Virus record (IMG/VR): IMGVR_UViG_3300043570_002836
Coordinates: 1 to 64,000 of that record
Origin: a virus
Reading direction: 5' to 3' (one strand)
DNA length: 64,000 nucleotides
A model generated the notes under the pieces. The model had not been told where the DNA came from. It saw only the letters and a program-made list of their open reading frames with translations, and searched no databases. The position numbers and the translations under genes were made by a program. Every line of letters begins with the position of its first letter. Within the stretch, counting starts at the first letter, position 1. Positions 54,850-63,998 of the stretch are shown here, piece after piece.

Positions 54850-55986
54850 TTACGCATAATCGCTTTGATTTAATTCAATATTAATTTTTGGTTTGTTATT
54901 CAACCCATCATCAGGGTGTTCAAGATAACCTAATTGTCGAATAGATAAATAATACCCAACATTATTGTCATTTTTAATTTTCCATATCTTTTCAGGGTAA
55001 GATAGACCTTCTAATTCTTTGGGTGTGGTTTTAATATCGTCAATTTTTTTAAAATCATAAATATCCGTAACATAAAATTTATCACCAACTTTTTTATAAG
55101 AAAAACGGCCTAAAGTGGTTGCGACCATAAATTTAGGGTTAGCAAATAAAGTATTCAAAATCATATCACTCGATTTAGTACCTCCAGGTCCAAACCATTC
55201 TTTTTCGATACCACCACCATAATCAACATACTCAACACTACCATAAGTTGTTTTACCTGTTCGTTTAATAGCATTATTAATAGTACTCATAATTATGGTT
55301 TTTTGAGGTCCTGTAAAATCATCAGTGGATAAATCACGAGCAAAAAATAATTCAGCAACATTAGGGAATAACTTTCTAAAATATGATTTAAGACCTTTTT
55401 TGATAGGACTAAATGCGGGAAATAAAGGGCTTGATAAAACGGCTAAAATATTCGCCCAAGAAGACCAAGAGGGTCCAGAATTTTTTGATTTTAATTCGTT
55501 AATATAGTCAGTTTTAAATTTGGCGTAAGACGATTTTGTAATGTTATCCATAACACCCGTTTTATTAGTTGGGATTATGGAATTATTATACCAACCTTTA
55601 TGGGTTTTATTCATCCATAATTGAAATCCTTTTAAAAAGTCAACATTTTTTTTCGACTTATTATTAGTCGTATCTTTTGTTTTTAATTTATCAATATAGT
55701 CTTTAATTTTGCCGTGTAATATTGTAATTGCTTTAGGATTATTAGTTAAATCAACCCATTTTACCCCATTTTTATTTTTTGCAAACCAAACACCTTTTAA
55801 TAATTTATAATCATAGGTTTTGTCAAAATTAGTATAAACACCATCATTAATATTTTTAAGATATTTATCATAAAAACTTTGATTATCGTTTTTAAAATAA
55901 TTTGAAGATGGTGATAGTTGTTCAGATAAAATATTTTTGACTAATGTTAATAATTGATTCTCGTTTAGACGTATTATTTTTTTCAT
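54850..55986 (-). CDS. Hypothetical protein with MKKIIRLNE leader
   Basis: Shared N-terminal motif; late motif at 56001-56008. Confidence 0.65.
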   Translation of the reverse strand: MKKIIRLNENQLLTLVKNILSEQLSPSSNYFKNDNQSFYDKYLKNINDGVYTNFDKTYDYKLLKGVWFAKNKNGVKWVDLTNNPKAITILHGKIKDYIDKLKTKDTTNNKSKKNVDFLKGFQLWMNKTHKGWYNNSIIPTNKTGVMDNITKSSYAKFKTDYINELKSKNSGPSWSSWANILAVLSSPLFPAFSPIKKGLKSYFRKLFPNVAELFFARDLSTDDFTGPQKTIIMSTINNAIKRTGKTTYGSVEYVDYGGGIEKEWFGPGGTKSSDMILNTLFANPKFMVATTLGRFSYKKVGDKFYVTDIYDFKKIDDIKTTPKELEGLSYPEKIWKIKNDNNVGYYLSIRQLGYLEHPDDGLNNKPKINIELNQSDYA

Positions 55987-56048
55987 AAAAATTTCTTTAT
56001 TATAAATACATTTTAAATGAAAAAAAAGCGTAAGGAATAGAATAAAGT

Positions 56049-56154
56049 TATTAATACAGGTTTCGAACCTGTGAGTCCCCGTGTATAGGTATCATACATA
56101 CCACATTCCCAGACTTTATGTATGCTCAACCATAAGCCACTCGGTCAATTAATG
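56049..56154 (-). ncRNA. tRNA-like RNA with expanded, non-canonical anticodon arm
   Basis: ATTAAT/ATTAAT acceptor, class-II-like D arm, ACAGG-TTCGAAA-CCTGT T arm; CATACATA/TATGTATG stem with 16-nt loop. Confidence 0.6.
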
Positions 56155-56159
56155 AACCT

Positions 56160-56366
56160 CCCCTGAGATTACGGAGAGTAGATATTCTCAGTTTTTCTTA
56201 TACAAAACCCAACGCGTCTTACCGCTTAAAAATCAACCATTACGTCGGAGTGAGGATGGTGTTCCACACTATTAACCCAACGACCCCCTTTACAAATCCT
56301 AATGAGGTATCAGATATATCATTGTTTAAGTAACGATACCAAATCTACTGAGTTTCTCGAACTCAT
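56160..56366 (-). ncRNA. Candidate structured ncRNA (~205 nt) at the end of tRNA array B
   Basis: AGTAGAT/ATCTACT long-range pairing crossing CTGAGA/TCTCAG; no ORF. Confidence 0.45.
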
Positions 56367-56368
56367 TG

Positions 56369-56443
56369 TGGAGACAGTGGGAATCAAACCCACCCCACGG
56401 TGAATGCAAATCACCATCGCCAAGTCTTGGAACATTTGCCCCC
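56369..56443 (-). tRNA. tRNA-Ala(TGC)
   Basis: GGTGA-TTTGCAT-TCACC; G3:U70. Confidence 0.85.
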
Positions 56444-56453
56444 ATTTTATTTG

Positions 56454-56526
56454 AGCGGGTGGAGGTAATCGAAACCTCGTCCTTAGATTGGAAGTCTAAT
56501 ATAATAAGCCACTATACGACACCCGC
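56454..56526 (-). tRNA. tRNA-Gly(TCC)
   Basis: TTAGA-CTTCCAA-TCTAA. Confidence 0.92.
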
Positions 56527-56612
56527 AAATTTGGGTAGAATCAGACGCGTTCTGTCTACCGAGACCTCATCGTTAATGAATTACTTCATCAGAGCGTACT
56601 GAGACACTATTG

Positions 56613-56692
56613 TGAACCTGGAGGGAGTCGAACCCTCAACCATATGGACTTCGGCTTAAACGAAGCGTGTTTACCAATTTCACCACAGGTCC
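56613..56692 (-). tRNA. tRNA-Leu(TAA)
   Basis: CTTCG-TTTAAGC-CGAAG; long variable arm. Confidence 0.9.
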
Positions 56693-56698
56693 ATTTTG

Positions 56699-56771
56699 TA
56701 GTCCTATCAGGATTCGAACCTGAATCAAAGAGGTAGAAGCTCTTTATGTTAATCCCTTACACCATAGAACC
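56699..56771 (-). tRNA. tRNA-Arg(TCT)
   Basis: AAGAG-CTTCTAC-CTCTT. Confidence 0.9.
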
Positions 56772-56780
56772 AAATTGTTG

Positions 56781-56852
56781 AGGGCTGGGGGAATTTCGAA
56801 ATCCCGACCTTTCGATTAACAGTCGAAGGCTCTTCCTCTGAGCTACCAACCC
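56781..56852 (-). tRNA. tRNA-Asn(GTT)
   Basis: TTCGA-CTGTTAA-TCGAA. Confidence 0.9.
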
Positions 56853-56866
56853 TTATATTTGTTTTG

Positions 56867-56939
56867 AGGTCTCTAACGGATTCGAACCGTTATCCCTGGG
56901 TTACAAAGCCAGAATAATAAGCCATTATACTAAGAGACC
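56867..56939 (-). tRNA. tRNA-Thr(TGT)
   Basis: CTGGC-TTTGTAA-CCCAG (C31:C39 mismatch). Confidence 0.85.
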
Positions 56940-57158
56940 AATTTGTGATTACTCCTTGGGTGTTTCATCACATTTACGTGAATGGAGTGGCCAAACTCAC
57001 TAACAACACGGACATTAGTTTTTAACAAAATAACTATCGTCAAAAATCGTCAGTTTTTATCAACCAAAACTGAATAAACGGACTGTCGTATTTGTTAACA
57101 CTATTTAAGTGCGTGTTACCTACGTTCACAATCAGAACCCTACTTGTTTACACTCCCG

Positions 57159-57230
57159 CGGTCTATGAGAGAATCGAACTCTCAGCACATCCGTGACAGG
57201 GATGTATGTTAACCATTACACTAATAGACC
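57159..57230 (-). tRNA. tRNA-Asp(GTC)
   Basis: CATCC-CTGTCAC-GGATG. Confidence 0.92.
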
Positions 57231-57235
57231 TTTAG

Positions 57236-57306
57236 TAGCGGATTCAGGACTCGAACCTGGCCTCGGGGTTATGAGCCCCACGTGCTACCATTTACACTAA
57301 ACCGCG
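57236..57306 (-). tRNA. Initiator tRNA-fMet(CAT)
   Basis: GGG/CCC anticodon stem; C1:U72 mismatch. Confidence 0.88.
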
Positions 57307-57311
57307 ATGTG

Positions 57312-57383
57312 TATTCCCACGGAGAATCGAACTCCGATTTTATGGATGAAAACCATAGGTCCTAACCGTTAGACGATGGGAAC
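57312..57383 (-). tRNA. tRNA-Glu(TTC)
   Basis: TATGG-TTTTCAT-CCATA. Confidence 0.92.
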
Positions 57384-57450
57384 GTTTAATTGTCTTACAA
57401 ATCTAAGTATTTACTTTTGATTATACAAGACCTTTTTAATTTTTTTTCTG

Positions 57451-57524
57451 TGGTCCAGATAGGATTCGAACCTATGACCTTCGCTTTATGAGAGCGCCGC
57501 TCTAACCACCTGAGCTACAGAACC
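57451..57524 (-). tRNA. tRNA(CAT), probably Ile2 (lysidine, reads ATA)
   Basis: CGCT-CTCATAA-AGCG; Ile-like D arm; leader B contains ATA and no internal ATG. Confidence 0.8.
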
Positions 57525-57529
57525 TTATG

Positions 57530-57602
57530 TACCCCCAACAGGATTCGAACCTGTAAAAAATAGTTCCTAAAACTATCGTGTCTACCTTTCCACCATAGGG
57601 GC
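57530..57602 (-). tRNA. tRNA-Leu(TAG), unusually short variable region
   Basis: ATAGT-TTTAGGA-ACTAT. Confidence 0.85.
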
Positions 57603-57652
57603 GTTTACTTCTATTCCAATACGTCAATGAACTCTTGTTCTGTTTTGTCTGA

Positions 57653-57686
57653 CAAATCTAATACTTTTATTTTGATTTGCCAAACT
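57653..57686 (-). promoter_or_regulatory. Bacteroidota-type promoter (TTTG...TAGATTTG) between terminator B and tRNA array B
   Basis: Matches the -33/-7 consensus; boxA-like GTTCATTGAC at 57623-57632. Confidence 0.7.
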
Positions 57687-57694
57687 TAGGTCAT

Positions 57695-57726
57695 AAAAAA
57701 AACCCCTCTCTTTTGGAGAAGGGTTT
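57695..57726 (-). terminator. Attenuator-type terminator B
   Basis: AAACCCTTCTC-CAAAA-GAGAGGGGTTT followed by T-tract; 5' arm complementary to GGAGTAGG spanning the leader stop codon. Confidence 0.85.
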
Positions 57727-57758
57727 CATTTAAATTTTATCTTAATGAATTAACACAC

Positions 57759-57827
57759 CTACTCCGATACACAAGGATTGTCCCCCTCCGTTCTCGCATT
57801 TAAAAGTATGTTATTCAAATTTTGCAT
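57759..57827 (-). CDS. Leader peptide B, MQNLNNILLNARTEGDNPCVSE (putative attenuator of tRNA array B)
   Basis: Codons 3-17 are all cognate to array B tRNAs and cover all 10 elongators. Confidence 0.8.
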   Translation of the reverse strand: MQNLNNILLNARTEGDNPCVSE

Positions 57828-57892
57828 TACTATGTCGTTTTTTATTAAATATATTGTACTTCTTGAAAAGTTCAATAGTTTATGAAAAAAAA

Positions 57893-58450
57893 TTATTTTT
57901 TTATGAATACGTATATAGTATTTGTACCATAATTAGTTGATGAGGTAAACCCATCTTTAAAATATTCTTTATTTGTCCAAGATTCTTTGAATGATTTTCT
58001 AGAGATAACTAAACAATCTGTAGGTATCATATTATAAATTTCGGCATCAATATTATTGGGGAATAACGTATTATCCATGTAGATTACTGTGGCATCAGAA
58101 ATATCACAATTTAAAATATTGTCATTAATAAATGAAATATTATCATTTTTGATATTATGAGTTTCCATTAACTTTAATGATGTTTCGTATCGTTCACGAC
58201 TATACTCAATACCACAAGATTTTTTGGGGTTATATTCCACCCCAATATGGATTACTATTTTCCCAATACCTGAACCTAAGTCATAAAATACCGTATCATC
58301 ATTAAAATGTGTTTTGTATTTGTTAACTATTTCGTTAATTGAATCGTAACCTGTTTCTCCATAACCTTCTGACCCGACAATATTAACATCAAATTCTGTT
58401 TTATTGTGGATGTTATATGAATTAAAATTATATAATGTTTCTATCGACAT
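57893..58450 (-). CDS. SAM-dependent methyltransferase (DOT1-like); start moved to ATG 58450 outside the tRNA
   Basis: YGE, FYDLGSGIGK, GIEYS..R, DATVIY. Confidence 0.8.
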   Translation of the reverse strand: MSIETLYNFNSYNIHNKTEFDVNIVGSEGYGETGYDSINEIVNKYKTHFNDDTVFYDLGSGIGKIVIHIGVEYNPKKSCGIEYSRERYETSLKLMETHNIKNDNISFINDNILNCDISDATVIYMDNTLFPNNIDAEIYNMIPTDCLVISRKSFKESWTNKEYFKDGFTSSTNYGTNTIYVFIKK

Positions 58451-58464
58451 ATTGGTAAATTTTG

Positions 58465-58545
58465 TGGGAGTGGAGGGATTCGAACCCCCACGCAATAAAG
58501 ACCTGATTTACAGTCAGGCGAGCCAGCCAGTTGCTCAACACTCCC
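58465..58545 (-). tRNA. tRNA-Tyr(GTA), copy 2
   Basis: CCTGA-CTGTAAA-TCAGG. Confidence 0.9.
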
Positions 58546-58584
58546 AAGTTAGGAAAGAGGAAGATGGTTTGTACGTCTTTTATT

Positions 58585-59079
58585 TTAGACCTCCAAATTT
58601 TTATTAAATAAGACATCACCTTCTTTCATATATTCTTTTTTCACTTTTTCAATCAAGGATTTCAAAGCGGAGTTACCTTGTGTTGTTTTTTTAAGGTCTT
58701 CAAGTTTAGGACTACCTTTAAAACTAATCTTAGTATAAGACGTTCCGTTTTCTTTACCCCATACAATGTTAGTTAAACACAACTTGTCAATTTTCTTTTG
58801 CTCCTTTTCTTTTTCTTTCTCGAATAGAATATCATCAATAACTGAATCAAGTGTTCGTGAATAACCAAACTCTTTTGGTAAAGTTTTACAGAAGTTATAA
58901 ACCTCATCTAAAACTTTAGACATACCTTCATTTAAAGGTTGGATATTTGTATTACCACCGTGTCCGTCATTTTGAGCGTATGCCGTTTTTTTACCGTTTA
59001 TAAAAACATCAGCCATGAAACAAGTAGTTTCTTCGCTAAACATTTTGTTAATCTTTACATTTTTAAGTTCTATTTTCAT
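58585..59079 (-). CDS. Hypothetical protein between the two tRNA-Tyr copies
   Basis: SEETTCF.A...INGK....A.NDGHGG; own -7 element at 59100-59107. Confidence 0.75.
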   Translation of the reverse strand: MKIELKNVKINKMFSEETTCFMADVFINGKKTAYAQNDGHGGNTNIQPLNEGMSKVLDEVYNFCKTLPKEFGYSRTLDSVIDDILFEKEKEKEQKKIDKLCLTNIVWGKENGTSYTKISFKGSPKLEDLKKTTQGNSALKSLIEKVKKEYMKEGDVLFNKNLEV

Positions 59080-59155
59080 ATTGTTTTTTTTTTGTCTTAC
59101 AAATCTACAATTTTAATTTAGTTCTCACAATAGTTTTTTTATTTTTTTTTTTAAG

Positions 59156-59236
59156 TGGGAGTGGAGGGATTCGAACCCCCACGCAATAAAGACCTGATTT
59201 ACAGTCAGGCGAGCCAGCCAATTGCTCAACACTCCC
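59156..59236 (-). tRNA. tRNA-Tyr(GTA), copy 1
   Basis: Identical to copy 2 except one D-loop base. Confidence 0.9.
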
Positions 59237-59308
59237 AAAACATATCGTAGATTGTCCTTCACAATTTAACGGCGGGTTTGAACTTAATCAACTCTCCTAC
59301 GATATTTG

Positions 59309-59380
59309 CACACCACCAAGGACTCGAACCCTGACCAAATGGGTTGGAACCATTTATGCTAGCCATTACACCAATGATGC
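59309..59380 (-). tRNA. tRNA-Trp(CCA)
   Basis: AATGG-TTCCAAC-CCATT. Confidence 0.9.
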
Positions 59381-59404
59381 GAATAATGAAACTTTGTTTC
59401 ATTG

Positions 59405-59478
59405 AGGACAGAGAGAGGTTCGAACTCTCGAATAATGGATTTGCAGTCCACCCCCTTAGACCACTCAGGCATCTGTCC
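59405..59478 (-). tRNA. tRNA-Cys(GCA)
   Basis: GTGGA-CTGCAAA-TCCAT; U73. Confidence 0.92.
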
Positions 59479-59872
59479 TTGAATTTACCATTTTAACTAA
59501 GACATCAACTAATATTACATTGTCGATACCCTCAATTAAGATTGGATTTTTTGTTTTCCCGTTTTCGATTAAATTACCTACTCCCATGTAAAACTTACAA
59601 TCAGTACTAATATTTGTTTTGTACATAATTGCGTTATACGCTTTTTGTTTTAATCTATCACTTCTAAATGTTGTTGTCAAATCTATGAAGATATCAACCC
59701 CGTCAATTGTTGTTTTAAAATCAAAATCAATAATTTGTTTTTTACCTAATGAGTTAATGAAAAATGGTTTTTCTTTATTTAACATTTTTTTTAACCCCGT
59801 TAATAATTCAAACTTGTCTTCTAATGACTTTCCATTCAGACATTTTTCTTGGTTAGTTTTACTGTGTGTCAT
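59465..59872 (-). CDS. Putative PD-(D/E)xK-type endonuclease within the tRNA array
   Basis: GKSLE..F...IDFDF......IFIDLTT..RSDRLK; stop codon lies inside tRNA-Cys. Confidence 0.5.
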   Translation of the reverse strand: MTHSKTNQEKCLNGKSLEDKFELLTGLKKMLNKEKPFFINSLGKKQIIDFDFKTTIDGVDIFIDLTTTFRSDRLKQKAYNAIMYKTNISTDCKFYMGVGNLIENGKTKNPILIEGIDNVILVDVLVKMVNSRTDA

Positions 59873-59993
59873 AGTCGTAATGTTTTTAAATATTAAGTCG
59901 CGGGGAATCCATCTGCCGCTTATTACTAGAATCTTGTGGTTTACTTACTATAGTTCATACCGTTACCACTAGGAAACCCAACTTAATATTTTG

Positions 59994-60065
59994 TAGCCCC
60001 TGTAGGACTCGAACCTACACTATTTTGTATGTAAAACAAACACTTTTCCTTTAAGTTAAGGAGCT
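59994..60065 (-). tRNA. tRNA-Val(TAC)
   Basis: TTTGT-TTTACAT-ACAAA. Confidence 0.88.
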
Positions 60066-60073
60066 AATTATTG

Positions 60074-60148
60074 TGTCCCCGACAGGAATCGAACCTGTGA
60101 CCCTTCCATTAAAAGTGGAATGCTCTAAACCAACTGAGCTACGAGGAC
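60074..60148 (-). tRNA. tRNA-Lys(TTT)
   Basis: TTCCA-CTTTTAA-TGGAA. Confidence 0.93.
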
Positions 60149-60159
60149 ATTTTTTTAAG

Positions 60160-60233
60160 TCGGAATGGTAGGGTTCGAACCTACGACCTTTCACGTATCA
60201 GGCGAATGCTCTAACCAACTGAGCTACATTCCG
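60160..60233 (-). tRNA. tRNA-Ile(GAT)
   Basis: TTCGC-CTGATAC-GTGAA. Confidence 0.92.
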
Positions 60234-60240
60234 TTATTTT

Positions 60241-60315
60241 TGGTCGGGGTAGCAGGTGTCGAACCTGCCGCCTCTTGGTCCCAAACCAAGCGTCTCTCCC
60301 CAAGACTATACCCCG
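60241..60315 (-). tRNA. tRNA-Pro(TGG), CCA encoded
   Basis: CTTGG-TTTGGGA-CCAAG. Confidence 0.9.
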
Positions 60316-60711
60316 TTATTTTGTTTTTAAGATATCCCCCAACTTCTTTACACGATTTTTGAAAGTTGTGTTGTAGAACTTTTCAAAATCTTGTTTAAGG
60401 TAGTTGAATCTGATATCACACCCATTTTTTAATTCTTTGTATGTGGAACCCCAATTCATCCCATCATTTACCATATCAATAACCAAGATTCCTACAGATA
60501 AGTTAGTAACATTCCCAACCCATATTGATATCTTCAATTCAGGGTTATATAAACCTCTACCATAAGATTCACCTCTTGGGTCAATAACAAAACCTCTTTT
60601 TTTGAACTCATCTAAAATGAAAGTTACCATTTCAGGTTTTAAACCTGATTGAATAGATTTAATCTCGTTATTTAATCCTTGAACTTTAGTTATTTTGTCT
60701 GTAGTTGTCAT
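60316..60711 (-). CDS. Hypothetical protein within tRNA array A
   Basis: Own -7 element at 60740-60747; stop codon abuts tRNA-Pro. Confidence 0.7.
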   Translation of the reverse strand: MTTTDKITKVQGLNNEIKSIQSGLKPEMVTFILDEFKKRGFVIDPRGESYGRGLYNPELKISIWVGNVTNLSVGILVIDMVNDGMNWGSTYKELKNGCDIRFNYLKQDFEKFYNTTFKNRVKKLGDILKTK

Positions 60712-60791
60712 ATGTATGGGTTTATCGTTGTTTGTCTTACAAATCTACGAAATCATTTCCATTCTCACAACACTTTTGTTATTTTTTTTTG

Positions 60792-60861
60792 TACCGAGTA
60801 TGGGTTTCGAACCCACTTGACCATCCTTATGAGAGATAGTTCTTTTCCTTTAAGCCTCGGT
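60792..60861 (-). tRNA. tRNA(CAT), probably elongator Met; short, atypical D arm
   Basis: TATCT-CTCATAA-GGATG; leader A has two internal ATG codons. Confidence 0.7.
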
Positions 60862-60868
60862 GTTTCTG

Positions 60869-60956
60869 CGGAAGATGTAGGGTTCGAACCTACGCATCAT
60901 ATTTCAGACCTACTTGTTTAGCAAACAAGCCTCTTTACCGATTTGAGTAATCTTCC
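60869..60956 (-). tRNA. tRNA-Ser(GCT)
   Basis: CTTGT-TTGCTAA-ACAAG; long variable arm. Confidence 0.92.
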
Positions 60957-60996
60957 AAATTATACCGACCTAGCTCGGTATCACACATCGGATACG

Positions 60997-61068
60997 TAGT
61001 CCCCCAAGGACTCGAACCTTGACAATAACATCCGTAGTGTTAAGTGCTATCCATTACACCAAGGAACC
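60997..61068 (-). tRNA. tRNA-Arg(ACG)
   Basis: TAACA-CTACGGA-TGTTA. Confidence 0.9.
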
Positions 61069-61124
61069 AAATTATTAGGTCAGGACCTAATAATCACTCA
61101 TTATTAGGTTTTAACCTTATATTG

Positions 61125-61199
61125 GGAGTATAGTGAGATTTGAACTCACCCTATTATCACCACAAAATAACGTGCTCAACCACTGACACTATATACTCC
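61125..61199 (-). tRNA. tRNA-His(GTG)
   Basis: TTATT-TTGTGGT-GATAA; G-1:C73. Confidence 0.88.
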
Positions 61200-61277
61200 A
61201 TAAAAACCCCACTTCATCAGCTTAACGGACTGACTGCCATATCGGAGGTGGGGGTATCCTGTTAATTCAGGACCTCG

Positions 61278-61350
61278 TGGGACAGGAGAGAATCGAACTC
61301 TCATTGCTTGTTCTTCAAACAAGTGCCTTGACCAACTTGGCAACTGACCC
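61278..61350 (-). tRNA. tRNA-Phe(GAA)
   Basis: CTTGT-TTGAAGA-ACAAG. Confidence 0.88.
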
Positions 61351-61359
61351 AATTTATTG

Positions 61360-61432
61360 TTGTCCCACAAGGGTTCGAACCTCGACTCTTCTGTACCAAA
61401 AACAGACGTGTTGCCAATTACACTATAGGACA
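61360..61432 (-). tRNA. tRNA-Gln(TTG)
   Basis: TCTGT-TTTTGGT-ACAGA; U1:A72. Confidence 0.9.
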
Positions 61433-61438
61433 GTGAGA

Positions 61439-61564
61439 TTACTTTTGTAATCTTTTTAATAATTTTTTAATTAACTTAAATTTGATTTTAATCCCTTTAG
61501 GTTCTTGTCTCAAAAACACTCGACTTGATTCGAATGTTCCTGTTAATACTTCTTTTCTTTTCAT
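61439..61564 (-). CDS. Small basic protein, 41 aa (MKRKEVLTGTF...KRLQK), not in ORF track
   Basis: Translated by hand; A-rich 5' region; fills the gap between tRNA-Ser and tRNA-Gln. Confidence 0.5.
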   Translation of the reverse strand: MKRKEVLTGTFESSRVFLRQEPKGIKIKFKLIKKLLKRLQK

Positions 61565-61583
61565 AATTTATTTTTCTTTTTTG

Positions 61584-61666
61584 CGGAAGACAGAGGAATC
61601 GAACCCCTAAAGCTTTTACACCCAGCTGATTTCAAGTCAGTGTCCTCGTCCATTCGGGCGCCTTCC
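61584..61666 (-). tRNA. tRNA-Ser(TGA)
   Basis: CTGA-CTTGAAA-TCAG; long variable arm; G73. Confidence 0.92.
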
Positions 61667-61687
61667 GTATTTTTATCTTTACCAATA

Positions 61688-61717
61688 TGTCAAAGAACTT
61701 TTCATTTTACAAAGTTA
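61688..61717 (-). promoter_or_regulatory. Host-type -7 element (TAACTTTG) and boxA-like GTTCTTTGACA ahead of tRNA array A
   Basis: Motif match. Confidence 0.65.
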
Positions 61718-61753
61718 CATTTTTTATTTTGTAACTTCCTAATTTTTATTCCA

Positions 61754-61796
61754 TAAAAAAACCCCCGAACTTTTGGTTCAGGGGTCTTACTAAATT
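61754..61796 (-). terminator. Attenuator-type terminator A
   Basis: GACCCCTGAAC-CAAAA-GTTCGGGGGTT followed by T-tract; CTGAACCA complementary to TGGTTCAG in leader A. Confidence 0.85.
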
Positions 61797-61811
61797 AATA
61801 TACGTTTATAT

Positions 61812-61931
61812 TTAACTTAATATGTTTTCTGAACCATATGACATGCTAAACCACATCGGATACGATACGCAACAAACGCGAATCTGTTTCGATGGACTTA
61901 CTTGTTTAATATGTTGTTCAGTTGCTCTCAT
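61812..61931 (-). CDS. Leader peptide A, MRATEQHIKQVSPSKQIRVCCVSYPMWFSMSYGSENILS (putative attenuator of tRNA array A)
   Basis: Codons 6-32 are all cognate to array A tRNAs and cover all 14 anticodon types. Confidence 0.85.
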   Translation of the reverse strand: MRATEQHIKQVSPSKQIRVCCVSYPMWFSMSYGSENILS

Positions 61932-61957
61932 TTTTTTTATTCTTTAATATATATCTA

Positions 61958-61987
61958 CAAATTTAGTAAAAGTTTGTTGAATGTCAA
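61958..61987 (-). promoter_or_regulatory. Promoter for leader A (TTGAC...TAAATTTG)
   Basis: Bacteroidota -7 consensus about 27 nt upstream of the leader ATG. Confidence 0.65.
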
Positions 61988-62001
61988 TGTTTTTTTAAAT
62001 T

Positions 62002-62184
62002 TTAACTGTTTTTCCACTCTTTCCAATAGTCAAATTCTTTTAAATTTTCTAAAAATTGTTTCTCAACCATTACATAGTTACTTGAGTTTTCCATTTCAGA
62101 TAACATATTGAAAAATTGTTGTCCATCTAATGACTCGGCAAACTGTCTATGTTCTTCTTCTAATATTTCGTGAAATCTTCCCAT
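62002..62184 (-). CDS. Small hypothetical protein
   Basis: ORF track. Confidence 0.6.
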   Translation of the reverse strand: MGRFHEILEEEHRQFAESLDGQQFFNMLSEMENSSNYVMVEKQFLENLKEFDYWKEWKNS

Positions 62185-62185
62185 C

Positions 62186-62365
62186 TTATATTTTCTTTAC
62201 GTGGTATTCGTGACCTGAATCAGAATTTGTTTGAAAGATGTCTTTCATTGTTTCAGCTTCATTTTCGGTTTCAAATTCCCAAACCTCAATATCAGTGTTT
62301 AATAAAATAACAGGTAAACTTTTTCCTGTTTTTTTGTTTTTTACGTTTTTGATAATTACATACAT
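62186..62365 (-). CDS. Small hypothetical protein, 59 aa (MYVIIKNVK...HVKKI), not in ORF track
   Basis: Translated by hand; -7 element at 62385-62392. Confidence 0.65.
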   Translation of the reverse strand: MYVIIKNVKNKKTGKSLPVILLNTDIEVWEFETENEAETMKDIFQTNSDSGHEYHVKKI

Positions 62366-62417
62366 AGTCTCGATATTTTTTTTACAAATCTAATAACAAT
62401 TTAGATATTAAACAACT

Positions 62418-63998
62418 TTAAAATCTGTTTTTTTTCTTACCACCAAACATTCTTAAATTTTGTTCGGCTAACGTACCCTTCTTTAATTCAAAGATTTCAT
62501 TTCGGTTAAGGGGTTTATTAACTTGTTTTGGTTTTTCATCCTTAGATGGATGATAAATATCTTTTCGGTTTTGGATGTTATTGATTAAATCGTAATTTAT
62601 TTTGGCGTTTTCTTGTTTTGGTTTAACATTTAATTTGAGAACATTGGTTAATAAATTTTCAATTTTATCCTTAACTATGTTGAATTCGGATAAATTTGAC
62701 GAGTTAATTACTTCAATTGTTATTTCTTTAAATTTTTCGGTAATTAACTCGGATAATGGTCCAAAATCTTTTTTTGTTTTACTAATTTTTGAATAATTAC
62801 TTCTAATTTTTGACGACATATTAGTGTCAGGATGTTGTGTTAAACTATTTGGATGAATACGTCGATAAAACCCAATTTTTTTAGTGTGGGTTAATTTTAC
62901 TTTATTTTTATATAATCGACCCATTAAATCGGAATCAGCCGCACATCTCCACCCCTCAAATCCATTCATATTTAAAAATAAGTTTTTATTAATACCGAAT
63001 ACACCTTCACCGTATGTGTTAGTTGTGGTGATGGTTTTATTAATTCCTTTAACGTCACCTTTAAAATCTAAATACATAGGTTTAATTAAGTCATGCGTAC
63101 TTTTTTTGGCCATGATATCTTGTATTAATTGTTCTGTCATAATATCGTCAGAATCAAAAAATAAAATATAATTAGATTTACTAATTTTAGTTAAACTATT
63201 TTTAATAATATATGGACCAACATTTTTTTCAAAGTATTGAAAACTTATTCGACTATCAAAACTATTATTTTTCACATATTCTAATGTTTTTTTACAACCA
63301 TCAATTCCGATGAAGATTTCACATTCAAGGTTTTTGATAGACTTAATTATGGATTGTAACGTTTCATCAAGGAATTCAACATTGTCGAATGTTGGTAATA
63401 TAATTGTTATTTCTTTCTCTTCATTTTTAATATCGAATTCATTAACTATTTTATCAATAAACAACAAATCTTTATATACCAATATGTTTTCGTTATTTTT
63501 ATCATTTCCGATAACTATAACTTTATCACCATGTGACCATTTTTGTAAATTTTCCAAAATTACAACTGAAAAATCTTTTTTAGTTTTATCAACATTAAAT
63601 AAAATTTTACTACCTATTTTCTCTTTAAAGTTATTTTCTAAATACGTTAAATGGTGCATGTTCATTCGTGAAATTAAGTACTTATTCTCAACCATTTTTC
63701 TTGCAGGGTCAGAAAGAACCGAACTATAAATATGTCTACCGTATTTTCTATCATCTATCTTATATATTGATGGTACATAAAGTTTATCTTCTAAAAAATA
63801 GTATTTATCACTTTTATAATATGTAATTATTGGTGAATATAATGTATCAATATTATTAAGTTTCATTAAATTCACCTCCTCTCTTAGTTGACGGTCATTA
63901 TAACATTCATCATTATCTAAAGTCATAATATATTCACAATTCACCGATTTACATTTTTCTAAACCCAAATTTCTTTTATCAATCATACCATCAATTTT
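62418..63998 (-). CDS. Glycosyltransferase family 2 (two GT-A-like domains), probably 5'-truncated by window edge
   Basis: TLDNDE; ITIILPTF...IDG...FFDSDD...AADSD; frame open to window end. Confidence 0.8.
   Translation of the reverse strand, partial: KIDGMIDKRNLGLEKCKSVNCEYIMTLDNDECYNDRQLREEVNLMKLNNIDTLYSPIITYYKSDKYYFLEDKLYVPSIYKIDDRKYGRHIYSSVLSDPARKMVENKYLISRMNMHHLTYLENNFKEKIGSKILFNVDKTKKDFSVVILENLQKWSHGDKVIVIGNDKNNENILVYKDLLFIDKIVNEFDIKNEEKEITIILPTFDNVEFLDETLQSIIKSIKNLECEIFIGIDGCKKTLEYVKNNSFDSRISFQYFEKNVGPYIIKNSLTKISKSNYILFFDSDDIMTEQLIQDIMAKKSTHDLIKPMYLDFKGDVKGINKTITTTNTYGEGVFGINKNLFLNMNGFEGWRCAADSDLMGRLYKNKVKLTHTKKIGFYRRIHPNSLTQHPDTNMSSKIRSNYSKISKTKKDFGPLSELITEKFKEITIEVINSSNLSEFNIVKDKIENLLTNVLKLNVKPKQENAKINYDLINNIQNRKDIYHPSKDEKPKQVNKPLNRNEIFELKKGTLAEQNLRMFGGKKKNRF

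Follow-up and report, generated by a model that had tools for sequence, protein, structure and literature searches.

How does a phage adjust the expression of a long block of tRNA genes to the state of translation in its host? This question is raised by the window analysed here, which comprises the first 64 kb (64,000 nucleotides) of the 96.5-kb IMG/VR record IMGVR_UViG_3300043570_002836, from an uncultured phage (31% G+C; completeness of about 33% as estimated by CheckV). In this region 23 tRNA genes were called by ARAGORN, all of them on the minus strand from 61432 to 56453, and a tRNA-Ser(TGA) at 61666-61583 was added when the tRNA-calling threshold was lowered. The tRNA genes form two blocks whose decoding sets complement each other:

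Array A, minus strand: two tRNA-Ser genes, Gln, Phe, His, Arg-ACG, Pro, Ile-GAT, Lys, Val, Cys, Trp and two tRNA-Tyr genes
Array B, 56369-57602, minus strand: Leu-TAG, a CAT tRNA, Glu, an initiator-like CAT tRNA, Asp, Thr, Asn, Arg-TCT, Leu-TAA and Gly-TCC and, below threshold, a tRNA-Ala-like element

Ten tRNAs of array B were detected by ARAGORN, including the two with a CAT anticodon. One of these (57306-57236) was judged initiator-like by eye, on the basis of a 1:72 mismatch and a G-C-rich anticodon stem, and the other is an uncertain candidate for Ile2. The tRNA-Ala-like element (56443-56369, minus strand) carries the anticodon UGC and the G3:U70 pair and has an aberrant D arm; it reached 25.5 bits with the Rfam tRNA model, below the gathering score of 29, and was not called by ARAGORN even at -ps80. 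Another tRNA-like element, with a CAT-like anticodon loop, is present at 60861-60792 (minus strand) and is likewise sub-threshold (Rfam tRNA, 23.1 bits; no ARAGORN call). In array A, a 164-aa ORF (59079-58585) that gave no Pfam match separates a pair of tRNA-Tyr genes of almost identical sequence (59236-59155 and 58545-58464, minus strand), and a very basic small ORF of about 41 codons (approximately 61563-61440, minus strand) is located between tRNA-Ser(TGA) and tRNA-Gln, a position that is kept in the relative L004 (L004:12206-12331).

Based on the features described below, array B is probably preceded by a ribosome-mediated (leader-peptide) attenuator that senses tRNA supply, and the phage probably makes more of the array's tRNAs when ribosomes read the codons of the leader slowly. 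Computation on the DNA established the leader ORF and its codon match, the terminator, the alternative helices and their covariation, and the conserved layout; from these we infer the translation of the leader, the stalling of ribosomes, the direction of the response and the activities of the promoters. The coding part of the leader consists of two elements:

57827-57759, minus strand: leader ORF B, 22 codons followed by TAG
57821-57777, minus strand: sensing run, codons 3-17 of leader B, all of them read by array-B tRNAs

The leader codons match the array that would be regulated, 15 of the 15 core codons being cognate to array B. The run contains five Asn codons, two read by Leu-TAA, and one each for Leu-TAG, ATA, Ala, Arg-AGA, Thr, Glu, Gly and Asp; the CTT and AAT codons are read by wobble only. 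These codons are exactly those listed in the initial annotation, in which every coordinate given for the leader and its stems also proved correct. Its further statement that the run covers all ten elongator tRNAs of the array stands for the 15 codons and the ten tRNA types, and has to be qualified for Ala, whose tRNA is sub-threshold (25.5 vs 29 bits), and for Ile2, which is a tentative assignment. The 5' UTR of the leader is short and A-rich and contains no Shine-Dalgarno sequence, the absence of which is usual in Bacteroidota.

The frequency of such runs was evaluated by partitioning the 61 sense codons according to the array that carries the decoding tRNA, with the long ORFs of the record as background; array-B-class codons account for 52% of the codons in these ORFs. 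A six-frame scan of the whole 96.5-kb record revealed only seven runs of at least 15 array-B codons, six of which are acidic or Gly/Ala low-complexity stretches that draw on 3-7 tRNA types, and the run in leader B was the sole one with more than seven types (it has ten). In simulations, the probability of a 15-codon run with at least ten tRNA types was about 2e-6 per start position. Under coding codon usage, approximately 0.4 such runs would be expected in the six frames of the record and approximately 6e-4 within the 300 nt upstream of the array.

The second block is preceded by a leader of its own:

61931-61812, minus strand: leader A, before array A, with 20 consecutive array-A codons of 11 types

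The probability of the leader-A run is about 5e-8 per start position, and the two leaders differ in their content of codon classes (Fisher p = 9e-4). The distinction extends to isoacceptors, as leader B has AGA and ATA and the leader-A run has CGC and ATT, in each case fitting the tRNAs for Arg and Ile in the array behind it. Leader A also has a three-helix layout like that of leader B, in which CUGAAC pairs with GGUUCAG or, alternatively, GGUUCAG pairs with the terminator arm CUGAACC. An Rfam match of leader A to the 'rnk leader' was sub-threshold (27.9 bits vs 50) and was regarded as noise.

The RNA elements of leader B that could form mutually exclusive structures are the following:

57726-57695, minus strand: intrinsic terminator, with a stem of 11-12 bp (57726-57700), a 5-nt loop and eight T (T-run 57702-57695)
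57804-57817, minus strand: region 1, over codons 4-8, the 5' strand of helix 1:2 (the anti-antiterminator), from MFE folds
57746-57765, minus strand: region 2, comprising GGAGTAGG (57765-57758), the 5' strand of the antiterminator, which includes the TAG, and the 3' strand of helix 1:2 (57760-57746)
57722-57715, minus strand: region 3, the terminator 5' arm CCTTCTCC, common to terminator and antiterminator
57725-57749, minus strand: inner stem of the antiterminator, TTCATT (57749-57744) with AATGAA (57730-57725)

As had been proposed from inspection of the DNA, GGAGTAGG pairs with CCTTCTCC at seven of eight positions across the TAG stop and encloses the TTCATT/AATGAA stem, the exception being a U-U opposition at the T of the TAG. 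The free leader was predicted to fold as helix 1:2, formed by codons 4-8 with the stretch just past the stop, together with the terminator (z = -4.7). When region 1 was masked and the 3' arm of the terminator was not yet made, the MFE structure was the proposed antiterminator (-12.8 kcal/mol), in which GGAG.AGG pairs with CCU.CUCC around UUCAUU/AAUGAA. With a ribosome placed at the stop codon, the terminator alone remained in the predicted fold, at about -18.6 kcal/mol. Since the antiterminator, with its U-U mismatch, is weaker than the terminator, it must act kinetically. The TAG stop is situated inside GGAGTAGG, so that a terminating ribosome is predicted to cover region 2. A second G-rich stretch able to pair with the terminator arm, GGAGGGGG (57789-57782), was considered as a partner and rejected; it pairs locally in the folds and lies inside the sensing run.

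Homologous leaders were found by a sequence shared among tRNA loci. An exact 18-mer of the leader matched the close relative alone, GenBank phages, searched by megablast with the entire tRNA region, gave short tRNA matches only, and no relatives were retrieved with the gene for a DOT1-like methyltransferase that adjoins the leader. A scan of IMG/VR with the boxA-like 17-mer described below yielded more than 115 contigs, from which loci were fetched. A unit was defined as a short ORF, followed by a terminator roughly 5-40 nt past the stop codon and then by tRNAs, and 47 non-identical units were collected by script on this basis. One relative (L002-L004), with 65% amino-acid identity in the neighbouring glycosyltransferase, has both leaders and both arrays, and the homologues of leader B amount to nine sequences from other phage contigs.

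In the nine homologues the ATG, the frame and the position of the stop are kept, indels within the ORF occur only in multiples of 3 and the stop codon is found 0-8 nt from the antiterminator strand. All nine fold as helix 1:2 plus terminator when the full sequence is considered; with the early codons masked and the terminator 3' arm absent, they adopt the antiterminator fold (-11.7 to -17.3 kcal/mol). The relatives have a 6-bp inner stem at the same place with a different sequence. The antiterminator helix (alignment columns 63-70 with 108-115) is 94% paired, compared to 46-67% in slid controls, and the observed pairing was reached in 0 of 500 shuffles. It includes three compensatory pairs (A-U/U-A/G-C at the first position, A-U/G-C at the second and G-C/A-U at the third), two of which are within the terminator loop in some members. 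Because in two of the sequences the 3' partners of co-varying pairs fall within the loop of the terminator, the terminator stem itself does not explain the covariation. The alignment, which had been suggested as a check on an antiterminator placed over the stop codon, thus bears this architecture out across the nine sequences. Helix 1:2 is 85% paired in the family vs 24-65% in slid controls, with modest covariation that is not clearly above that of the controls. At the codon level, substitutions among the homologues disregard the chemistry of the side chains, yet they keep within the tRNA set of the array.

The relationship between leader codons and array content was examined in 30 non-identical leader/array units with 6-17 tRNA classes each, excluding the first three and last five codons. 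The match of leader codons to their own array was 0.73, compared to 0.49 for shuffled or other arrays (permutation p <= 5e-5), a difference that is inflated by the shared ancestry of the units and computed with some arrays cut by contig ends. With the same qualification, 22 of 22 codon classes were commoner in leaders whose array holds the corresponding tRNA. The tendency was also observed within split boxes, where TTR codons reached 2.4 with the tRNA in the array vs 0.1 without it, and AGR codons 1.1 vs 0.3. In genomes with two full arrays, the match of a leader to its own array was far above the match to the other array.

Asn codons provide an example of this correspondence. In the relative L004, tRNA-Asn belongs to array A; its leader A contains three Asn codons (none in the leader-A run of the window) and its leader B contains two (five here). 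Past codon 3, the leader studied here contains four Asn codons. The remaining B-type leaders, whose visible arrays all lack tRNA-Asn, contain 0-1. Two independent leader types were also recognized, namely a Leu/Val/Cys-rich leader (L338, at about 11851 in the scanned orientation) before an array of Cys, Val and Leu tRNAs only, and a leader rich in Thr, Tyr, Gly, Pro and Trp (L323, at about 13390) before an Ala-Tyr-Gly-Trp-Pro-Ile-Arg-Thr array. The match is imperfect in the relatives, in which a His codon occurs at position 5 with no His tRNA in the array; L090 retains a Phe codon though its visible B-type array is devoid of a Phe tRNA.

Several putative signals for transcription surround the leader:

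57846-57875, minus strand: promoter P1 of leader B, TTGAAC (57875-57870), a spacer and TATATTTA (57853-57846)
57653-57683, minus strand: promoter-like P2, downstream of the terminator, TTGGCA-N17-TAGATTTG
57430-57389, minus strand: internal promoter of array B, before tRNA-Glu, of the same class as P2
57616-57632, minus strand: boxA-like site, 15 of 17 positions identical to the motif GTTCTTTGACATATTGG, ending 13 nt before the first tRNA

The promoter form in this locus, TTG..-N17-TAnnTTTG, is what we take to be the Bacteroidota type. P1 would be a -33/-7 promoter of this type with a non-consensus -7 box, in which the final G is replaced by A, and a TTGACA-like element with TATATTTA is kept upstream of nine of the nine B-type leaders. 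The initial annotation saw no strong terminator between the end of array A and leader B and suggested that the two arrays could be gated in series. No terminator was found there in the present analysis either, but leader B has its own conserved promoter P1, and serial gating remains a conjecture. The stretch between array A and leader B contains an ORF (58450-57893, minus strand) with a Pfam match to DOT1 (E = 2e-16), a histone-methyltransferase-like family that is unusual for a phage and is found here in an unusual place between tRNA blocks.

Sites similar to P2 were detected in seven of the nine B-type units, but among all 47 units only 12 have one. A distance of 5-30 nt between the terminator and boxA or the first tRNA was seen in many units, where a second promoter would not fit. 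In the window, a promoter core, TAGATTTGTAAGACAAA, which includes the -7 box and a conserved downstream stretch, is repeated on the minus strand at 62392-62376, 60747-60731, 59107-59091, 57660-57644 and 57405-57389. These copies precede array B, tRNA-Glu and small ORFs within array A, which suggests that the arrays are fed by several promoters. As P2 and the internal promoter lie past the terminator, array B could be expressed in a way that bypasses the attenuator, and in this phage the attenuator most likely acts on no more than the part of transcription that starts at P1. The attenuator as the sole gate on array B is not supported.

The boxA-like 17-mer was found in exact form 7-14 nt before the first tRNA of the arrays in about 30 of the fetched IMG/VR loci. 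An exact copy lies 153 nt ahead of the 23S gene in the Pedobacter hartonius 16S-23S spacer, and the 17-mer also occurs in more than 120 genome stretches, nearly all of them from Bacteroidota. Based on its identity with the Pedobacter spacer sequence and its frequency in this phylum, the 17-mer was read as an rRNA-type boxA. Since the exact 17-mer of the sister units occurs almost only in Bacteroidota genomes, the host of the phage is probably a member of this phylum. In the window the motif (GTTCTTTGACATATTGG and variants, minus strand) precedes array A (61698-61682), array B (57632-57616) and a large ncRNA near 48-49 kb (49101-49085). The phage seems to borrow a host rRNA antitermination signal for its own stable RNAs, and with boxA located past the terminator, only polymerases that clear the checkpoint would turn termination-resistant.

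A model can be proposed in which P1 would start a leader transcript of about 150 nt and a ribosome would translate the 22-codon ORF as the RNA polymerase proceeds. If the array's own tRNAs were plentiful, the ribosome would reach the TAG inside the antiterminator strand GGAGUAGG and mask this strand, upon which the terminator would form and transcription would end at about 57695. If the leader were untranslated, region 1 (codons 4-8) would pair with region 2 and the terminator would form as well. Conversely, the scarcity of any of the approximately ten tRNA species would stall the ribosome in codons 3-17, where it would cover region 1; region 2 would then be free to pair with the terminator 5' arm and the polymerase would continue via boxA into the tRNA genes. 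The outcome would be a negative feedback on tRNA supply with OR logic across many tRNAs, to which P2 and the internal promoter would add an input independent of the attenuator. In a broader form of the model, each phage tRNA block would be self-tuning, its leader being a multi-input OR-gate that checks every encoded tRNA species and opens if any of them is short, for example through host anticodon nucleases or the shutdown of the host's own tRNA supply; such gates would be widespread in large phages that infect Bacteroidota and would evolve in step with array content. We consider the broader form to have an even chance of being correct.

Other explanations of the locus were weighed against this attenuator. 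The P1-leader-terminator segment could be an autonomous small unit (a micropeptide gene, an sRNA or an insulator) with a constitutive terminator, array B being driven by P2, boxA and internal promoters. The strength of the terminator, the non-consensus -7 box of P1 and the retention of P2-like promoters past the terminator in 7/9 B-type units are in agreement with such a unit, which would however leave unexplained the covariation of the last leader codons with the 5' arm and loop of the terminator, the way in which leader codon content follows array content and the absence of space for a second promoter in many sister units. The substitutions among homologues, which keep to the array's tRNA set and disregard side-chain chemistry, also speak against it, and the autonomous unit is regarded as unlikely. 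An origin by chance, in which the ORF is a spurious one in AT-rich intergenic DNA ahead of a terminator, is strongly disfavoured and very improbable: although about 0.4 comparable runs are expected across the six frames of the record, the expectation falls to about 6e-4 for the 300 nt upstream of the array, and a chance origin would have to accommodate the second, complementary leader before array A, the conservation of ORF, frame and structure in nine homologues and the family-wide association between codons and arrays.

It could also be argued that the attenuator is real and responds to another signal, such as amino-acid starvation, tRNA charging or a general inhibition of translation by antibiotics or ribosome-targeting host toxins. 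Classical attenuators are established to respond to charged tRNA, the sequence does not separate tRNA abundance from charging, and a tRNA array of Anabaena is induced by general translational stress (PMC8421152, PMC10272220). On the other hand, a general stress sensor would need neither a partition of codons at the level of isoacceptors nor the tracking of tRNA gains and losses between arrays, and extra tRNA gives no relief from amino-acid starvation. This variant of the attenuator is considered quite unlikely, and a leader that senses the supply of the array's tRNAs remains the preferred interpretation.

Textbooks describe leader-peptide attenuation as a mechanism of amino-acid operons; in the phage, tRNA genes themselves appear to be under this kind of control, with approximately ten tRNA species read at once. 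Multivalent leader peptides have been described in enterobacterial attenuators, including the thr leader (Thr and Ile) and the ilvGMEDA leader (Ile, Leu and Val), in addition to trpL, hisL, pheL and leuL (PMC1183508, PMC3082878). The phage leader resembles these in its short ORF rich in regulatory codons, the intrinsic terminator, an antiterminator (2:3) exclusive with the terminator, a predicted anti-antiterminator (1:2) and a stop codon placed for the masking of region 2. It differs in that the genes under control are tRNA genes instead of genes for amino-acid biosynthetic enzymes, in that leader B samples about ten tRNA species, mostly once, whereas classical leaders repeat 1-3 amino acids, and in its setting, a Bacteroidota phage with a boxA and a second promoter after the terminator. 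Because tRNA genes, and not genes for amino-acid biosynthesis or transport, lie downstream, it is better described as a variant than as a classical member of the leader-peptide attenuators.

T-box riboswitches are also transcription attenuators that report the tRNA status of the cell; a T-box, however, binds one uncharged tRNA directly and without translation, whereas in the phage leader the proposed sensor is an ORF together with the position of the ribosome on it. No T-box match was found in 55500-62500 (Rfam, E <= 1), and no known Rfam family matched leader B at the same cutoff. With regard to antitermination by boxA in rRNA operons (NusB/NusE), the 17-mer of the sister units equals the Pedobacter 16S-23S spacer sequence and the copy in the window retains 15/17 positions, the difference being that the putative site in the phage comes after a proposed leader-peptide attenuator, and that such sites stand ahead of tRNA arrays and a large ncRNA.

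Literature searches for leader-peptide attenuation of tRNA genes in phages or bacteria revealed no published account. The nearest published system is the Anabaena trn operon, a long tRNA array that is induced under translational stress via the repressor TrcR (PMC8421152, PMC10272220). Both are accessory tRNA arrays turned on, or proposed to be turned on, when translation is impaired; in contrast to the phage arrays, the Anabaena operon is controlled through promoter direct repeats bound by a protein repressor and has no leader, terminator or codon-matched ORF, and the words attenuation, leader and terminator are absent from the 2021 paper. The tRNA-Phe genes of E. coli were considered as a possible precedent for leader-peptide attenuators and were rejected, as the region upstream of K-12 pheV holds an adjacent promoter but lacks a leader ORF, and for K-12 pheU there is, at the level of annotation, a 106-nt spacer only and no annotated leader.

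If the mechanism is true, it would offer a direct answer to how phages time the expression of their tRNA arrays, and would link phage tRNAs to the translation state of the host and possibly to tRNA-targeting defences. The leader would then constitute a natural, compact and programmable sensor of tRNA availability. As leader composition follows array composition, leaders could in that case mark the boundaries of functional tRNA operons, and could lend support to doubtful tRNA genes such as the Ala-like element of array B.

Some of the spacers between tRNA genes in the window, with lengths of 80-220 nt (57157-56940, 56611-56527, 59992-59880 and 61276-61199, minus strand), contain no ORF and gave no Rfam match. 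Similar long, structured-looking spacers between tRNAs are present in the relative (L004:16420-17070), where each of them is preceded by a boxA-like motif.
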